A stretch of DNA of 17,793 nucleotides, taken from contig JANNQV010000067.1 in assembly GCA_031400935.1 (NCBI GenBank), positions 1 through 17,793 on the forward strand. The letters run 5' to 3'. Source of the DNA: Armatimonadota bacterium. GTDB taxonomy: Bacteria > Armatimonadota > Fimbriimonadia > Fimbriimonadales > Fimbriimonadaceae. This document shows positions 4,008-10,509 of the stretch, piece after piece. Position 1 is the first letter of the stretch; the number at the start of each line of letters is the position of its first letter. Below the pieces are notes generated by a model. That model made no database searches and was not told where the DNA came from. It was given only the letters and a program-made list of their open reading frames with translations. A program made the position numbers and the translations under genes.

Positions 4008-5021
4008 TTGAAAGTTCTCGTCATTCGACGCGGTGCTTTGGGAGACGTTATTCATGTTTCCGCTTGCTTTGACCAGGTGAAGGCTCAGCGTCCTGATGTC
4101 GAGATTCATGTCTTAACGGACCGAAGTTGCTTTCCACTTTTGGAAGGAATGAAGTCAGTTGACAAAATCCATGAGTGGCCGAGAAACAGCGATCCAATCG
4201 GATATGTGGCAACTCTAACTGCAGCTCGAAGAATCAAAGCCGAGCAAGTAGATTTGATTGTTAATTTGATGCCAGCTGTCAAGTCCAGGTTGATCGCGTG
4301 GTTTTGCAAAGTGCCTTCAGTAACGCTTAAAAAGCAGCGAAATTCTTCACGCGGTTTGGCATTGCGAAATTCTCCAATTCTTCACGTTGCTGAAGAGTAT
4401 TACGAAACCTTTCAACGCGGGATTGGCCTTATGCCATTGACTCGCGAAAAATTAGTTCCTCTGATTCAAGGTTCGTCAGACAGTGAAGAACAACAATCGC
4501 AAAAGAAAAGAATTGGCTTGGTACTTGGCGTGGGAACTAGAAGACAAAACAAAGCTTGGCCCCTTGAAAATTTTGCTGAACTTGCTAACAAGTTACTAAG
4601 TAATTCTGATTGCGATATTGTGTTGATCGGAAGTGCTGAAGAGGCAACACTTGCCGAGCAGATGCCAAGCGACGAGCGCATTCACAATCGAATTGGCGTT
4701 TCACTCACAGAAACAATGCAAGAACTCGAGAGTTGCACCATTGTCATTGGTGCAGACACTGGGCCAATGCATATTGCCACGGCTTTAGGCGTGGCAGTCG
4801 TGATGTGCTTTGGCCCAACCTCTTCGATTCGGACAGGACCGTTGGGAAAAGGTGTAGTGCTCGTTCCCCCGAGTTCAATGGAATGTTGGCCTTGCGAACT
4901 TCGAAACTGTCCATTGCACGGGAACGAGTTTCGGCAATGCATGCGTGAAATCTCAGTTAACGAAGCATTGGAAGCGTGCCGCTCGCTACTTGAACCGGCA
5001 ATAGTTCACGAAACTGCTTGA
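4008..5021 (+). CDS. Glycosyltransferase family 9 (ADP-heptose:LPS heptosyltransferase-like)
   Basis: MKVLVIRRGALGDV, NKAWP, DTGPMHIATALG, FGPT and a C-terminal CxPC-x4-CP-x7-C cluster. TTG start with AGGGAG upstream. Confidence 0.92.
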   Translation: MKVLVIRRGALGDVIHVSACFDQVKAQRPDVEIHVLTDRSCFPLLEGMKSVDKIHEWPRNSDPIGYVATLTAARRIKAEQVDLIVNLMPAVKSRLIAWFCKVPSVTLKKQRNSSRGLALRNSPILHVAEEYYETFQRGIGLMPLTREKLVPLIQGSSDSEEQQSQKKRIGLVLGVGTRRQNKAWPLENFAELANKLLSNSDCDIVLIGSAEEATLAEQMPSDERIHNRIGVSLTETMQELESCTIVIGADTGPMHIATALGVAVVMCFGPTSSIRTGPLGKGVVLVPPSSMECWPCELRNCPLHGNEFRQCMREISVNEALEACRSLLEPAIVHETA

Positions 5022-5114: not shown

Positions 5115-6374
5115 ATGAACCGCAAGCGCTTTCAATTGGGAGTTGGGATCTTAGTAGTTCTCATTTCAACGACCCTTGGGCTGGCATATTGGCAAGAAGT
5201 CAAGTCAATGGACGCCCTTGAAGAACAATTCCGATTAGCGAGGGCAGAGAGAATACCGACCAACGCACTCGAATTTGCTGCGCTGATTCAAACCGCAGAT
5301 CTGTCGCACAATGCCGCATCATACTATCGAGATTTCAATTTCCACCGAATGCGAAAGGGCGATTCCGCTGTAATTGCGTCCGACCTTATCTTTGAAAGAA
5401 GTGCCGAAAACCTGCAGCAGGCAGAAACATATCTAGCTACAAGCAGTATGGCCCTCCAAATTCTCGACGAAGCCGTAAATTTGCCGCGATGTTGGTTCAA
5501 CCGGGATTGGGCTCAAGGTGTGGCTGTTATCTTGCCGGAATATTCGCAAATGAAAGAAGCAGCCAAATTGCTGGCGTTACGGGGTTCGGTTGCTGCTTCA
5601 AGCGGAGATTGTGAAACTGCAATAGACAATGTGCAGAAGATGTTTGTGATCGCAAAACATGCTCGAGAAGAACCCATTGCAATTGGTGCGCTTGTCAGCG
5701 AGTCGATAGAAAGCATTGGAATCAAGCATCTTGCTTATTGGTCGTTCACGGATCGAGATCAGCCTGAATACGCTGCTGCACTGAAAGTGGCGATCGATCG
5801 GATGAGTCGCCCAAACCTGAAACGTGAGTACAGCGGTGAGTTATTCGTGTACTTGTCTGCGATAGATTTATCTTCAGATCCGTCATCCGCTCATACACTT
5901 GGATTCAGAGACGATGCAATCGGCATGCAAGAGAAACTCGTTGCGTTCTTCAAAAACAAGAGTGCTGCTCGAGCTTCGGTTATCAAGGCTCAGCGAGCCT
6001 TTTTTGCGGCTTTGGACAAGCCTCCGAAGGAACGGGAGAAAGCTTTTGACGCAGCGGCATTTGAGCGTAATTCGGCACTAATTGCATTTCCGGCCGCATT
6101 GAGATTGTATTCTGAAAGCGGAGATTCATACGATTCGGTTGCGATGCGTGAACCTAATTGGCAAGCCAAACGCCAGCAGTACATTGCACTATGGAGGGCA
6201 CTTAAAAGCAAGAAAATTCAAACGACCATCGAAACCGAAGACCTATTAAGCCCATTTGACGTCAAACCGCTTAGTTACAAATTCGACGGAAAGCAGATAA
6301 CTATCCAAGTCAGCCGATATGAGAAATCAGGCGATTCGAAGGCTCTAAAGGTTCCGCCACGACTGAATCCGTAG
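5115..6374 (+). CDS. Hypothetical protein with an N-terminal membrane anchor, mostly helical
   Basis: 419-aa ORF; basic N-terminus then a hydrophobic helix (GVGILVVLISTTLGLAYW). No catalytic motif recognised. TAAACT lies 8 nt upstream of the ATG. Confidence 0.8.
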   Translation: MNRKRFQLGVGILVVLISTTLGLAYWQEVKSMDALEEQFRLARAERIPTNALEFAALIQTADLSHNAASYYRDFNFHRMRKGDSAVIASDLIFERSAENLQQAETYLATSSMALQILDEAVNLPRCWFNRDWAQGVAVILPEYSQMKEAAKLLALRGSVAASSGDCETAIDNVQKMFVIAKHAREEPIAIGALVSESIESIGIKHLAYWSFTDRDQPEYAAALKVAIDRMSRPNLKREYSGELFVYLSAIDLSSDPSSAHTLGFRDDAIGMQEKLVAFFKNKSAARASVIKAQRAFFAALDKPPKEREKAFDAAAFERNSALIAFPAALRLYSESGDSYDSVAMREPNWQAKRQQYIALWRALKSKKIQTTIETEDLLSPFDVKPLSYKFDGKQITIQVSRYEKSGDSKALKVPPRLNP

Positions 6375-6638: not shown

Positions 6639-6787
6639 ATTTGTCGAGAATGACGCAATTGTTAGCGTCGAATACGATTGTTAGCCAACGCTAAAACAGC
6701 ACTTTTTAGGTTCAATCATAAGAAAATTGCACTTTTATTAAAATTTTCTGAACAATTTTAGCGGCGTATCGTTCTTCATCATTGAAC

Positions 6788-7009
6788 ATGAAGAATCAAC
6801 AAACAAACCGACTATTACCTTGTCTCGCTTTAGTTACGTTACCGGTACTTGCATTCGGATATATTGACGGCGCAACAGGCAGCATGTTAATGCAAGCCGC
6901 AGTTTCCGGAATATTGGGACTGATGTTTGTAGGAAGAACGCTTTTCACGAATTTATTCCGCGGGAAAAAGAACGATTCAGCTGTTGAATGCGAATCAACC
7001 CAGCAATGA
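6788..7009 (+). CDS. Small membrane protein with signal-peptide-like N-terminus and YID(P/G)xTGS motif
   Basis: 73 aa from ATG 6788: hydrophobic leader ending LAFG, then YIDGATGSMLMQAAVSG, a TM helix and a basic tail. Its stop overlaps the next start (ATGA, 7006-7009). Confidence 0.8.
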   Translation: MKNQQTNRLLPCLALVTLPVLAFGYIDGATGSMLMQAAVSGILGLMFVGRTLFTNLFRGKKNDSAVECESTQQ

Positions 7010-8382
7010 CCGCAACGCGAGAACCCTCTTCATTTCGAGACCCAGACGGCTTCGTCTTTTTTGAAGATGGTTTACCATTTCGGGTCGTAAAATCTTCCTT
7101 CCAAGAAGACTTTGATGCAATCAAAACGTCTGGCCTTTGGCAATCATTGCAAGGGCAAGGCGATCTGATTGATCATGAGGAAGTCAGGTTTTCAGAAGCA
7201 GAGTTTCCGGGTGCCATTGCGGTTCTGAAACCGGAAAAAGTCCCCTTCATTTCCTATCCCTACGAATGGGGTTTTTCCCAGTTGAAGGATGCCGCGCTGC
7301 AAACGCTCAAAGTTCAGCGCAAATCTATTGCACTCGGAATGAGTCTCAAGGATGCTTCGGCATTCAATGTTCAATTTGTTGATGGCAAGCCAGTGCACAT
7401 TGATTCGCTATCTTTTGAAATCTATCGAGAAGGCGATCCTTGGCAAGCTTACGGCCAATTTTGCCGCCACTTTCTAGCTCCATTGGCATTGGCAGCCGCT
7501 GGACATATTGACAGCCAACGCCTTTCGATGGCGTTTATTGATGGCATTCCTCTAGATCTGGCGGTCAGCTTGATTCCGCTCCACAAGCGACTGAAACCAG
7601 GGCTGATGATTCACCTTCAGGCTCATGCAAAATCGCTTGCTTCCGCAAGTGCTGGTGCCAGTTCCGGTCAAAAGGGCAAAGTATCCAAGGTCGGAATGCT
7701 GGGGCTCATTGACAGCCTGAGGGGCACTATCGCCTCCCTCCAATTGCGTCGAGAGCGCACCAAGTGGTCCGACTATTACACCGACACGAACTATTCAAAG
7801 CGTGCCATGGAATCGAAATGCGAGTTAGTTGGGCAAATGCTGGACCAGATTCAGCCGAAAACTGTATGGGACATCGGTGCAAACACTGGCGAATTCAGCA
7901 AACTTGCCAGCGACCGAGGAGCATCGGTGATTGCTTGGGATATGGATGCGGCTTGCGTGCATCGGCATTATGAACATCTGAAGCTTGAAAAATCGGTGAA
8001 AATTCTTCCTCTGGTAAACGACATTTGCGCGCCGTCGCCTGCTATTGGCTGGAACTTGGCGGAAAGAAAGTCGTTTTTTGATCGTGCTGATGCGGATACC
8101 GTAATGGCGCTAGCGCTAGTCCATCATCTCGCAATTACCAACAACGTTCCGCTTCCAATGATTTCTGAGACTTTCAGCCGACTTGCACCGAATTTGATCA
8201 TTGAATTCGTGCCGAAATCTGACTCGCAAGTCCAAAGAATGCTCAGTTCTCGTGAAGACATTTTTTACAAATATAACGAGGAAGAATTCGAAGCTGCATT
8301 CGGCAAGGAATTTGAACTGATTCAAAGCGTGCCAGTTGCAGACTCGAAGAGGACTCTCTACCACTTTCGTAGGCGGGAATAG
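7006..8382 (+). CDS. NoeA-like protein: N-terminal kinase-like domain plus C-terminal class I SAM-dependent methyltransferase
   Basis: SFRDPDG and FISYPYEW N-terminal motifs recalled from the NoeA-like family; LKDASAFN...HIDSLSF; SAM motif I VWDIGANTGEFS, then AWDMD and LALVHHL. Start at the ATG 7006 coupled to the upstream stop. Confidence 0.85.
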   Translation: MTATREPSSFRDPDGFVFFEDGLPFRVVKSSFQEDFDAIKTSGLWQSLQGQGDLIDHEEVRFSEAEFPGAIAVLKPEKVPFISYPYEWGFSQLKDAALQTLKVQRKSIALGMSLKDASAFNVQFVDGKPVHIDSLSFEIYREGDPWQAYGQFCRHFLAPLALAAAGHIDSQRLSMAFIDGIPLDLAVSLIPLHKRLKPGLMIHLQAHAKSLASASAGASSGQKGKVSKVGMLGLIDSLRGTIASLQLRRERTKWSDYYTDTNYSKRAMESKCELVGQMLDQIQPKTVWDIGANTGEFSKLASDRGASVIAWDMDAACVHRHYEHLKLEKSVKILPLVNDICAPSPAIGWNLAERKSFFDRADADTVMALALVHHLAITNNVPLPMISETFSRLAPNLIIEFVPKSDSQVQRMLSSREDIFYKYNEEEFEAAFGKEFELIQSVPVADSKRTLYHFRRRE

Positions 8383-8384
8383 TT

Positions 8385-9923
8385 TTGAAGGCGATCAAGG
8401 CAATCCATCCCCCGTTGTTCGCACTTTACTTTCCGCTAACGCTCTATTCAGTCAATGCTGGGATTGTTCCTTGGAGTGATATAGTTGTCCCTTCGATCGT
8501 CCTGATCGGAATATCGCTTTTGCTGTGGTTCGCAACTTTCAAGCTGCTCAAAGATCAGGTTCGAGCCGCTGCTGTAACAAGTGCTTTCCTTATCTGCTTT
8601 TTTTCGCACACCGCCGCCCTCGAACTAATTTTTCGAAGGACACCGCAGAATATTTCGCATCTTGATTCTGCGTTGTTGGTTGGTTTATGGATGCTTATTG
8701 CGCTGGCTTTCATTTTCGGTTCAGGATGGAAGGGCAAGCACAACCAGTATGTGAATCAATTTCTAAACTTCGGCGGTTGCGCACTCATTGTATTGGTGCT
8801 ATTTTCGATTGGGAGCACTACTTTCAAGCGAATCACTTTCCAACCGATGAACGAGGGAGTCCTTGCAAATGCCTATTCAAACATGCCTGCAGAACGACCC
8901 GATGTGTTCTATATTATTCTTGACGGCTACGGCTCGAACTCGACCCTCAAGAATTCATACAGTTTTGATAACGAAAGGTTCCTTACCAGCTTGAAGGAAC
9001 GTGGGTTCTATGTTGCCGACGATGCCAAGTCTAACTTTTGTGAGACAGAAATTTCGCTCGCTAGCAGCCTCAATTTCGTCGGAACTGAGGGACTTCCGCA
9101 CCCACAAAACAACACTTCGCTTGATAGAATGTTTTTAGACAAAATGGTTGACCAAAGCATGGCAGCTAAAGTGTTTCGTGGCTATGGCTACAATTACTAT
9201 GCGGTTACCACTGGCTTCCCATCACTCGCATTTGATTCCGCAGATTTCGTGCTTGCAGACTCTGGGAAATTCTCACTTTTCTTAGATGCGCTCTTGGCAA
9301 AAACTCCGATCCGATATTCAACTCAAGGCTTGCAAAGCGGGCTAGATCGAAGGCGTGATCAACTTCGCTCAGGCTTTGATAGTTTGACAAAGTTGTCTAA
9401 AAAGGGAATTGCACCTCGGTTTATTGTCTGTCATATCTTGGCTCCTCATCCTCCATTTGCCTTTGGTCCAAACGGCGAATCTGTTCGCCAAAAAATTCCA
9501 TTTGGACTTTGGGATGGCAACCATTACATGGAAATGGGTGGAACTTTAGATGGGTACCGATCTGGTTATGTTGGGCAGTTGCAATACGTAAACCGGCGAA
9601 TTTTAGAATCAATTGATGCAATAAAAACTGCATCGCCGGACGCGATCATCATCTTGCAAGGTGACCATGGCCCAAAATCTGAAACCGATCAAAACGATCT
9701 GAAAAAAACAAATGTTGACGAGCTTTTTGGAATACTCTATGCTGTACGAGGCCCTGAGAAAGTCCAAAAGCGGCTTTACAGCTCTATAACGCCGATCAAC
9801 ACATTTCGAATCGTGCTGAGCGAATTGTTTGGTCTTGACCTAAAGTTGGCTGAGGACAAGTCGTATTTCTCGGGATGGGAGCATCCGTTGGTCTTTGAAG
9901 ATGTGACTGAACGGCTGAAGTAA
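8385..9923 (+). CDS. Membrane-bound alkaline-phosphatase/sulfatase-superfamily protein (NoeB/LtaS/EptA-like architecture)
   Basis: About 5 N-terminal TM segments, then PDVFYIILDGY (metal ligand), SNFCETEISLASSLN (Thr at the presumed nucleophile position, no CxPxR), PHPPF and IILQGDHG. Confidence 0.85.
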   Translation: MKAIKAIHPPLFALYFPLTLYSVNAGIVPWSDIVVPSIVLIGISLLLWFATFKLLKDQVRAAAVTSAFLICFFSHTAALELIFRRTPQNISHLDSALLVGLWMLIALAFIFGSGWKGKHNQYVNQFLNFGGCALIVLVLFSIGSTTFKRITFQPMNEGVLANAYSNMPAERPDVFYIILDGYGSNSTLKNSYSFDNERFLTSLKERGFYVADDAKSNFCETEISLASSLNFVGTEGLPHPQNNTSLDRMFLDKMVDQSMAAKVFRGYGYNYYAVTTGFPSLAFDSADFVLADSGKFSLFLDALLAKTPIRYSTQGLQSGLDRRRDQLRSGFDSLTKLSKKGIAPRFIVCHILAPHPPFAFGPNGESVRQKIPFGLWDGNHYMEMGGTLDGYRSGYVGQLQYVNRRILESIDAIKTASPDAIIILQGDHGPKSETDQNDLKKTNVDELFGILYAVRGPEKVQKRLYSSITPINTFRIVLSELFGLDLKLAEDKSYFSGWEHPLVFEDVTERLK

Positions 9924-9971: not shown

Positions 9972-10509
9972 TTGGAGTTGACAACTTTCTCAATTCGCCC
10001 GATCAATCCTGATTCCATGGCAGAAATCGAGTTGATCGCAGCTCGAATACGGCAAACCCTAGTCGAGGTCATCAACGAAGAAGTTGGCGGTTCCATGTAC
10101 TCGCTAAATTGGCTGATTGAACGTGCCAAATTTCATCTTGATCCAGCGCAGTGCGATGGCCAGATTTTTGTTGCAGAGTCTGAATCTGGAGACATAGTAG
10201 GGCATACAATTGTGAGGGTCGAAAGGGAAGAGCGGAGTGCGGAGAGTGGGGAAGAACAAACCAACAACTAATAACTATGTATTTGTACTATCCTCTACTT
10301 TCTACGTCGTCCCAGAGCATAGAGGAATGGGGATCGCTTCCCAATTTATTGAAACTGGCGAAGCGTGGATGCGAGTAAAGGGTTTGCAGAAAGCCCGAAC
10401 CTATACGGCAGAAGATAACGAGAAACTGCATCGTCTGATGTTCAGGCATGGCTACGAGATTGAGCTTAGGAAGAACGATATGGTTTCGTTGGTGAAGGAA
10501 CTGATTTAG
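9972..10509 (+). pseudogene. GNAT N-acetyltransferase split by a frameshift (true pseudogene or sequence error)
   Basis: ORF 9972-10271 gives the N-terminal half (…QIFVAESESGDIVGHTIVRVE). ORF 10237-10509, in another frame, gives the acetyl-CoA motif (FYVVPEHRGMGIAS) and N-x6-FRHGY. The junction 10221-10300 is low-complexity stutter sequence. Confidence 0.8.

Follow-up and report, generated by a model that had tools for sequence, protein, structure and literature searches.

What does a small membrane protein do beside two enzymes that resemble NoeA and NoeB? The question is raised by three genes in a 17,793-nucleotide (nt) contig of an Armatimonadota bacterium (JANNQV010000067.1, assembly GCA_031400935.1), the whole of which we refer to as the window. 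The first gene encodes a microprotein (the peptide) of 73 amino acids (aa) counted from its ATG, with an alternative TTG start at 6782. Its stop codon overlaps the ATG of the second gene, open reading frame 2 (ORF2, 458 aa), as ATGA at position 7006, and ORF3 (512 aa, TTG start) follows after a gap of 2 nt. An initial annotation of this DNA had called the three genes tightly coupled, and their coordinates (Table 1) confirm this. We consider it somewhat better than an even bet that ORF2 and ORF3 together perform a methyl-phosphate pathway, in which phosphorylation and methylation are followed by transfer. For the full version, with Tyr1 of the mature microprotein as covalent carrier, we estimate a probability of roughly 35%.

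The tip and its distribution

noeA and noeB have reportedly been known as host-range genes since 1995. The initial annotation had compared the two larger genes of the trio with this pair, and the comparison can be extended: ORF2 is a full-length homologue of Sinorhizobium meliloti NoeA (34.6% identity over residues 5–458, 99% coverage, E 1e-62), and the ORF3 profile matched NoeB with a probability of 97.7% (E 1.7e-12), with Thr, HxxxPH and GDHG in register. On S. meliloti pSymA, a hypothetical ORF of 71 aa between nodL and noeA carries YLDPGTGS. The nodL-(71-aa ORF)-noeA-noeB region and Legionella Lani_1193/1194/1195 have the same three genes in the same order as the trio, whereas neither nodL nor an acetylase gene neighbours the trio in the window.

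The module itself is not new, since it was described bioinformatically by Krysinska et al. in 2022 (PMC9758233). According to the parts of that paper covered here, 94% of ~2000 homologues join an atypical kinase to a methyltransferase, NoeB/Lani_1195 has an alkaline phosphatase (AlkP) fold with EptA as HHpred match, and Lani_1193 and Lani_1195 are neighbours in 65% and 38% of 816 neighbourhoods, respectively. These parts also propose Nod-factor or envelope decoration as well as effector status, and they assign the small protein no motif and no mechanism. By position and size, we infer that Lani_1193 is the microprotein. Our literature search, with most subscription journals outside it, turned up neither a mention of the peptide motif nor any biochemistry of noeA/noeB. 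The trio is a further ordinary copy of a described, chemically unsolved module, and the new evidence lies in the peptide, to which the earlier annotation gave no role. We counted at least 8000 clusters for ORF2, 3919 representatives (E<=1e-30) for ORF3 and 1910 for the peptide.

The YIDxxTGS motif pointed out earlier is present in the window's microprotein as YIDGATGS. It follows a signal-peptide-like leader (aa 1–24, with A-F-G preceding the Tyr) and is itself followed by one transmembrane (TM) helix and a basic amphipathic, cytoplasmic segment. The consensus of the tip in the family is Y[LI]DPG[TS]GS, so the window holds an atypical member. Neither Pfam nor NCBIfam contained a family for the peptide, and the Atlas yielded only unnamed clusters at 0.87. 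The gene is nevertheless under selection as a protein, because 17 synonymous stand against 6 non-synonymous codon differences from the orthologue in an Armatimonadota metagenome-assembled genome, with which the whole trio block is syntenic at ~80% DNA identity. We rejected a phage-coat or holin identity, given only single weak Pfam matches and the tight linkage to both enzymes.

Among 131 unique peptides, conservation peaks at the outer tip (Y1 in 129, D3 in 128, S8 in 126 and Q12 in 128), and the sequence past the TM helix is variable except for W29. At position 6, 17 of the 131 have Ala or Ile. S8 was found in 100 of 100 peptides collected with a regular expression that left position 8 unconstrained. 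It is lost in four peptides, three of them (G009, G043, G432) from genomes where ORF2 is divergent with catalytic residues kept and one (G410) from a genome in which no ORF2 was found, and it is retained next to very divergent ORF3s where ORF2 is canonical. Small as these numbers are, the pattern suggests that the tip is recognized by ORF2, with Tyr and not Ser as its constant residue. In the top 120 of 1910 database matches, 99 peptides start with a hydrophobic-core leader that is 18 aa or longer (94 of them with Ala or Gly at −1), 21 have short leaders, and all carry a net positive segment after the TM helix. Given the signal-peptide-like leader and the positive-inside tail, the tip should face outward with Tyr as mature residue 1. 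At seven loci with short-leader peptides (L013:9400-10461 and six similar), ORF2 is followed by an unassigned protein of ~330–350 aa with a few hydrophobic segments in place of ORF3. Five ORFs checked as insertase (DUF106) candidates had no Pfam match.

We searched 301 genomes of the window's phylum for each gene and dropped weak rows (10 genomes for ORF2, 6 for the peptide, 8 for ORF3). ORF2 was present in 49, the peptide in 47 and ORF3 in 45 genomes, perfectly nested, in a set where related genomes are not independent and the profiles had partly been built from the searched genomes. None of the 252 ORF2-negative genomes gave a strong peptide or ORF3 match. In the two ORF2 genomes lacking the peptide, ORF2 is broken or at a contig edge, and in two genomes lacking ORF3 a divergent sulfatase-fold membrane gene adjoins ORF2. 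The neighbourhood on which the initial annotation had built its pathway is therefore conserved across genomes. At 114 ORF2 loci, many on short contigs, we found the peptide in 108 and an ORF3 match in 81 (62 strong); the six peptide misses are contig edges, a relocation or a changed gene order. In six genomes (G225, G241, G234, G091, G202, G031) the peptide directly precedes ORF3 apart from ORF2, which ties it to both enzymes, and three additional copies stand alone where the operon is split or duplicated. In a second phylum, the peptide occurred in 17 of 251 genomes and ORF2 in 12, and 10 genomes have both; ORF2 stays ~50% identical across phyla. In G410 (L184, G410:C21), the peptide and a divergent ORF3 adjoin phosphoenolpyruvate mutase and related phosphonate-synthesis genes, which hints at other cargos.

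The tip also occurs in a second system. In six of the seven genomes with a peptide and no ORF2, it lies in front of, or is fused to, an AlkP protein of 660–730 aa (PF01663), and this system also accounts for two (G236, G122) of the six peptide rows dropped as weak. Such fusions had escaped an earlier search for longer peptide forms, which gave one 128-aa protein only; since the genome search found them, that near-blank result reflects a limit of sensitivity. When we searched with the PF01663 protein, the motif with a TM helix was found in 17 of 30 loci, versus one chance match in 2.97 Mb (the window's genome). Of 54 AlkP proteins (60 loci, two phyla), 23 have x-[IVL]-[DG]-P-G close to the N-terminus, and every one of these 23 has Tyr as x. 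In 19 of them, which form one clade, the catalytic core directly follows Y[IV]GPGAG, a single hydrophobic stretch and a tract rich in Arg. These 19 fusions would be cytoplasmic, and sister paralogues with leaders of the twin-arginine translocation (Tat) type often adjoin their genes. The remaining four have two hydrophobic stretches, and two of them are sister to Tat-type enzymes with a free peptide upstream; our script labels over-count a long hydrophobic stretch, and proteins with one were classified by eye. Taken together, the tip is found free, fused before one TM helix (the inner-type clade) and fused with two (including outer-type enzymes). S8 is not kept here. The two tip types share modest similarity (E 3e-4, mostly motif), with YIDPGTG forms bridging both, and convergence is a possible origin of the shared tip.

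Genes for adenosine 5'-phosphosulfate (APS) kinase or sulfotransferase are adjacent in four second-system loci, and AlkP-fold enzymes are able to sulfate glycans, as described for Agl30/Agl31 in the parts of PMC11980604 covered. At L189-L248, paired PF01663 enzymes (YIGPGAG-anchored inner, Tat-leader outer) are often followed by genes for an unassigned membrane protein of 260–280 aa, a small protein and a sulfotransferase or APS kinase.

The two enzymes

In the N-terminal half of ORF2, the initial annotation had noticed LKDASAFN followed by HIDSLSF at the spacing of a kinase-like catalytic loop and metal site. The spacing was borne out, with D116, N121 and, 12 residues after N121, D133. All three residues are invariant in 139 of 139 ORF2 homologues and in 8 of 8 deliberately divergent ones. 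R26 (beta3), D116-x4-N121, D133 and D289xGxNxG are invariant and common to NoeA. We predict the kinase fold from these conserved residues and from PMC9758233, not from our own fold searches. Structure models were made for full-length proteins, and the methyltransferase domain filled the Foldseek (PDB, BFVD) and VIA-wide fold lists of full-length ORF2. Neither an ESM Atlas search with residues 1–245 nor an hmmsearch of the N-terminal domain profile against PDB gave a match. With hhalign, the D-x4-N and the later Asp fall in register with HxD..N and DFG of both kinase sets compared (4 Kdo-like and 13 Ser/Thr kinases), at E values (0.05–0.07) no better than that of one of three controls (0.064).

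The C-terminal half was correctly recognized as a class I methyltransferase: it holds D289xGxNxG, is matched accordingly in Foldseek and VIA, and is modelled by AlphaFold2 (AF2) with a predicted local distance difference test score of 88. It is a candidate phospho-methyltransferase. WbdD tops its Foldseek list (E 1.7e-8, methyltransferase domain only), and H373, H374 and R449 are invariant and placed after strand 365–368 and before the last strand of the model. This pattern recalls WbdD H132/H133/R203, which are required for phosphate methylation (PMC3482155), in a register that comes from the offset of the matched ranges and not from a residue-level alignment.

Like E. coli O9a WbdD (PMC3482155), ORF2 combines a kinase (here predicted) with a class I methyltransferase. 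We rejected membership of the WbdD family, however, since the domain order is reversed (in WbdD the methyltransferase is N-terminal and the kinase C-terminal) and the window has no wzm-wzt. Sequence similarity reaches an E of only ~0.1, and ORF2, in contrast to WbdD, has an obligate microprotein and an AlkP partner. Transporter genes were found only for a divergent relative in G511 (L186:7509-8870), which is 28% identical to ORF2, keeps all catalytic residues and lies directly behind wzm and a Wzt_C-bearing wzt; it is a candidate WbdD-like terminator with reversed domain order. Phage records gave no ORF2 match. A protein of Mimivirus LCMiAC01 (BFVD A0A481Z196) matches the ORF2 model over both domains (TM-scores 0.65/0.72, E 1.5e-21).

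For ORF3, the annotated combination of TM helices and an AlkP domain with Thr instead of CxPxR holds. The protein has four hydrophobic peaks within residues 33–145, scores 27.6 bits against Pfam Sulfatase (cut-off 25) and contains neither CxPxR nor SxPxR, on which ground we rejected a formylglycine sulfatase identity. In 130 family sequences, T221 is kept in 129, D180 in 130, H355 in 129, and D427 and H428 in 130 each. EptC, YejM, MCR-1 and EptA are the top structural matches. ORF3 thus resembles EptA/LtaS-type transferases in its N-terminal TM domain, AlkP fold, conserved Thr nucleophile and metal ligands, but is only 10–14% identical to EptA, EptC, MCR-1, LtaS and YejM, with sulfatases scoring within ~2 Z, and differs from them in being genetically tied to ORF2 and the peptide. 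S. meliloti NoeB (L003:6387-8045) has a tip-like YIDP between its first two hydrophobic segments, which may be chance and is missing from ORF3 and its close relatives. A joint complex prediction of ORF3, ORF2 and the peptide scored 0.01 and was used neither for nor against anything.

Proposed routes across the membrane

In the mechanism we favour, ORF2 would act in the cytoplasm, where ATP would phosphorylate an acceptor hydroxyl and S-adenosylmethionine (SAM) would then methylate the phosphate, as in WbdD. The acceptor would be Tyr1 of the microprotein, yielding an aryl methyl-phosphodiester as activated donor, with Ser8 and Gln12 as putative recognition determinants. The short Gly/Pro-rich tip would reach the outer face once at export or repeatedly by flipping. 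There, ORF3 would take the methyl-phosphate onto Thr221 at its metal site and hand it on to a glycan or glycolipid of the envelope. For enzymes of the AlkP superfamily, aryl methyl phosphodiesters are good substrates. A covalent shuttle appears to be the simplest reading of this Tyr-tipped module, because the tip is linked or fused to the inner activating enzyme and the outer AlkP enzyme alike.

Tyr shuttles have precedents in DltX, PatA and OatA, where, according to the parts of PMC12148441 covered, an invariant Tyr on the extracytoplasmic side of a membrane microprotein, free or fused, stands between the enzyme that loads it and an outer transferase. In contrast to the C-terminal FxYxxF of DltX-type acyl shuttles, the Tyr of our peptide is N-terminal (YxDxG); the trio has no MBOAT or SGNH protein, its enzymes are unrelated to theirs, with no sequence relationship, and the proposed cargo is a phosphodiester. 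The peptide may therefore work shuttle-like without being a member of the DltX family. A wider idea, which we regard as doubtful, is that Y-x-[DG]-P-G microproteins are general covalent shuttles for activated anionic groups across the inner membrane, carrying methyl-phosphate in NoeA/NoeB and sulfate in the second, paired AlkP module. A cytoplasmic enzyme would load the tip, the tip would flip outward, and an extracytoplasmic AlkP-fold enzyme would unload it onto envelope glycans.

Several observations weigh against the Tyr1 carrier. Its weak point is how the tip meets the cytoplasmic enzyme: the tip faces outward and ORF2 has no export signal, so Tyr1 would have to be loaded before export or flip. 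For the 700-aa single-TM fusions of the second system, one-time use is implausible, which makes flipping a requirement, and the trio encodes no counterpart of the MBOAT channel found in the Dlt system. The L020 peptide has no Tyr at position 1, and the peptide profile was built from ORF2-adjacent copies in genomes that are not all independent. No peptide or ORF3 was found for the G511 relative, and the ORF2 family may thus act without the peptide. Concerning the chemistry, our hhalign evidence for a kinase fold is no better than that for a control, and phospho-methyltransferases tie with or rank below ordinary methyltransferases in the ORF2 fold searches.

The alternative that survives best, although we hold it to be rather unlikely, is an adaptor or subunit role resembling that of BcsF. 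The microprotein would stay unmodified and anchor ORF2 by its tail and/or complete the outer active site of ORF3 by its tip, and ORF2 would make a lipid-linked methyl-phosphate donor (methylated phosphatidic acid or polyprenyl phosphate), used by ORF3 as EptA uses phosphatidylethanolamine. Such a scheme is free of the flipping problem, lipid donors are used by the closest folds of ORF3, and the 19 proteins with tip and TM helix fused to a cytoplasmic-type AlkP resemble a tether. In E. coli, too, a cytoplasmic protein, a single-pass peptide and an AlkP-fold Thr transferase share one operon (BcsE-BcsF-BcsG), and BcsF recruits cytosolic BcsE. In the parts of that study covered (PMC11470070), however, BcsE is a non-catalytic regulator, and BcsF binds via its cytosolic tail without contacting BcsG. 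Here, the tail varies and the outer tip is near-invariant, even with ORF3 partners that are ~18% identical, and an invariant Tyr in two enzymatically different systems exceeds what a tether needs.

It is distinctly unlikely, in our view, that ORF2, anchored by the microprotein, caps a nascent glycan by phosphorylation and methylation in the cytoplasm as WbdD does, with ORF3 performing a separate periplasmic step (phosphoethanolamine or phosphoglycerol transfer, or cap editing). The first rank of WbdD in Foldseek and the peptide-less G511 relative behind its transporter genes speak for capping, as do glycosyltransferase, GT-C and O-antigen-ligase genes, which are frequent neighbours. Yet ORF3 was never found without ORF2 in the 301 genomes (45 of 45 together), which would be surprising if ORF3 were an independent enzyme; the trio of the window and of many relatives lies among housekeeping genes with no transporter; and ORF2 keeps its ~50% identity across phyla whose glycans must differ.

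We likewise give little credence to an N-terminal domain of ORF2 that is no conventional kinase but a nucleotidyltransferase, another ATP-dependent ligase or a different fold, with a transferred group other than methyl-phosphate. The parts of PMC9758233 covered describe atypical motifs, in which Arg replaces the catalytic Lys and no Glu of the ion pair was identified, and weak HHpred kinase matches (E 3.2–6.6). Our control-level hhalign values and the phosphonate-synthesis genes beside the ORF2-less G410 locus point the same way. On the other side stand the register of D-x4-N and the later Asp with both kinase sets, their invariance even at 28% identity, and the published fusion of 94% of homologues to a methyltransferase. 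Least probable is a peptide that serves as carrier or substrate via Ser8 or Thr/Ser6, or as end product (a modified surface or signal peptide): S8 recurs at a position left unconstrained, and protein-kinase-like folds commonly target Ser/Thr, but S8 is absent from four peptides and not kept in the second system, position 6 tolerates Ala or Ile, and aryl phosphodiesters are better donors than alkyl ones.

Surroundings and significance

Table 1. Features of the trio and of its surroundings in the window.
Feature	Position	Strand	Characteristics or basis
Microprotein, Lani_1193-type neighbour, 73 aa	6788..7009	+	Leader, tip, one TM helix, cytoplasmic segment
Outer tip, mature residues 1-12	6860..6895	+	Conserved Tyr1, Asp3, Gly5, Gly7, Ser8, Gln12
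ORF2	7006-8382	+	458-aa ORF
ORF2 N-terminal domain, predicted atypical protein-kinase-like	7006..7746	+	R26, E87, D116, N121, D133 invariant
ORF2 C-terminal class I SAM methyltransferase	7747..8382	+	D289xGxNxG; invariant Y257, H373, H374, R449; AF2, Foldseek, VIA
ORF3, NoeB-like membrane AlkP-superfamily enzyme	8385..9923	+	~4 N-terminal TM helices and catalytic domain: D180, T221, H350, H355, D427, H428
GT9 heptosyltransferase-like gene	4008-5021	+	Family search
419-aa protein, mostly helical-looking, N-terminal hydrophobic stretch	5115-6374	+	Matches no family
GNAT acetyltransferase, split across two overlapping frames	9972-10509	+	Orthologue in L001: both halves in one frame
23S and 5S rRNA genes, contig end	14113-17712	+	

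Peptide, ORF2 and ORF3 are each single-copy in the window's genome. The trio is surrounded by genes for a GT9 transferase, an M32 peptidase, a split GNAT and 23S-5S rRNA, and by one gene that we take to be transaldolase-like; no neighbour obviously belongs to the module. The GT9 gene is a possible, unlinked hint of an acceptor in the lipopolysaccharide core. Since the orthologue in the close relative L001 has a single frame, the split of the GNAT gene is a frameshift or an assembly error. The 419-aa gene has no DNA match in L001 and marks a variable slot immediately upstream of the trio. A promoter and terminator scan gave a signal no higher than in shuffles.

Taken alone, the locus in the window is an ordinary copy. 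Homologues of ORF2, ORF3 and the peptide number in the thousands, though, and for the ~30-year-old question about noeA/noeB the analysis points to a single residue, Tyr1, and a single chemistry. If the Tyr1 carrier is true, the trio would stand for an additional envelope modification route and for a new means of bringing activated groups through a membrane, one that bacterial glycan sulfation probably shares. If the wider shuttle idea is true, the tip would be a protein equivalent of lipid donors that occurs in thousands of sequences, and the host-range phenotype of noeA/noeB would be explained as envelope methyl-phosphorylation.

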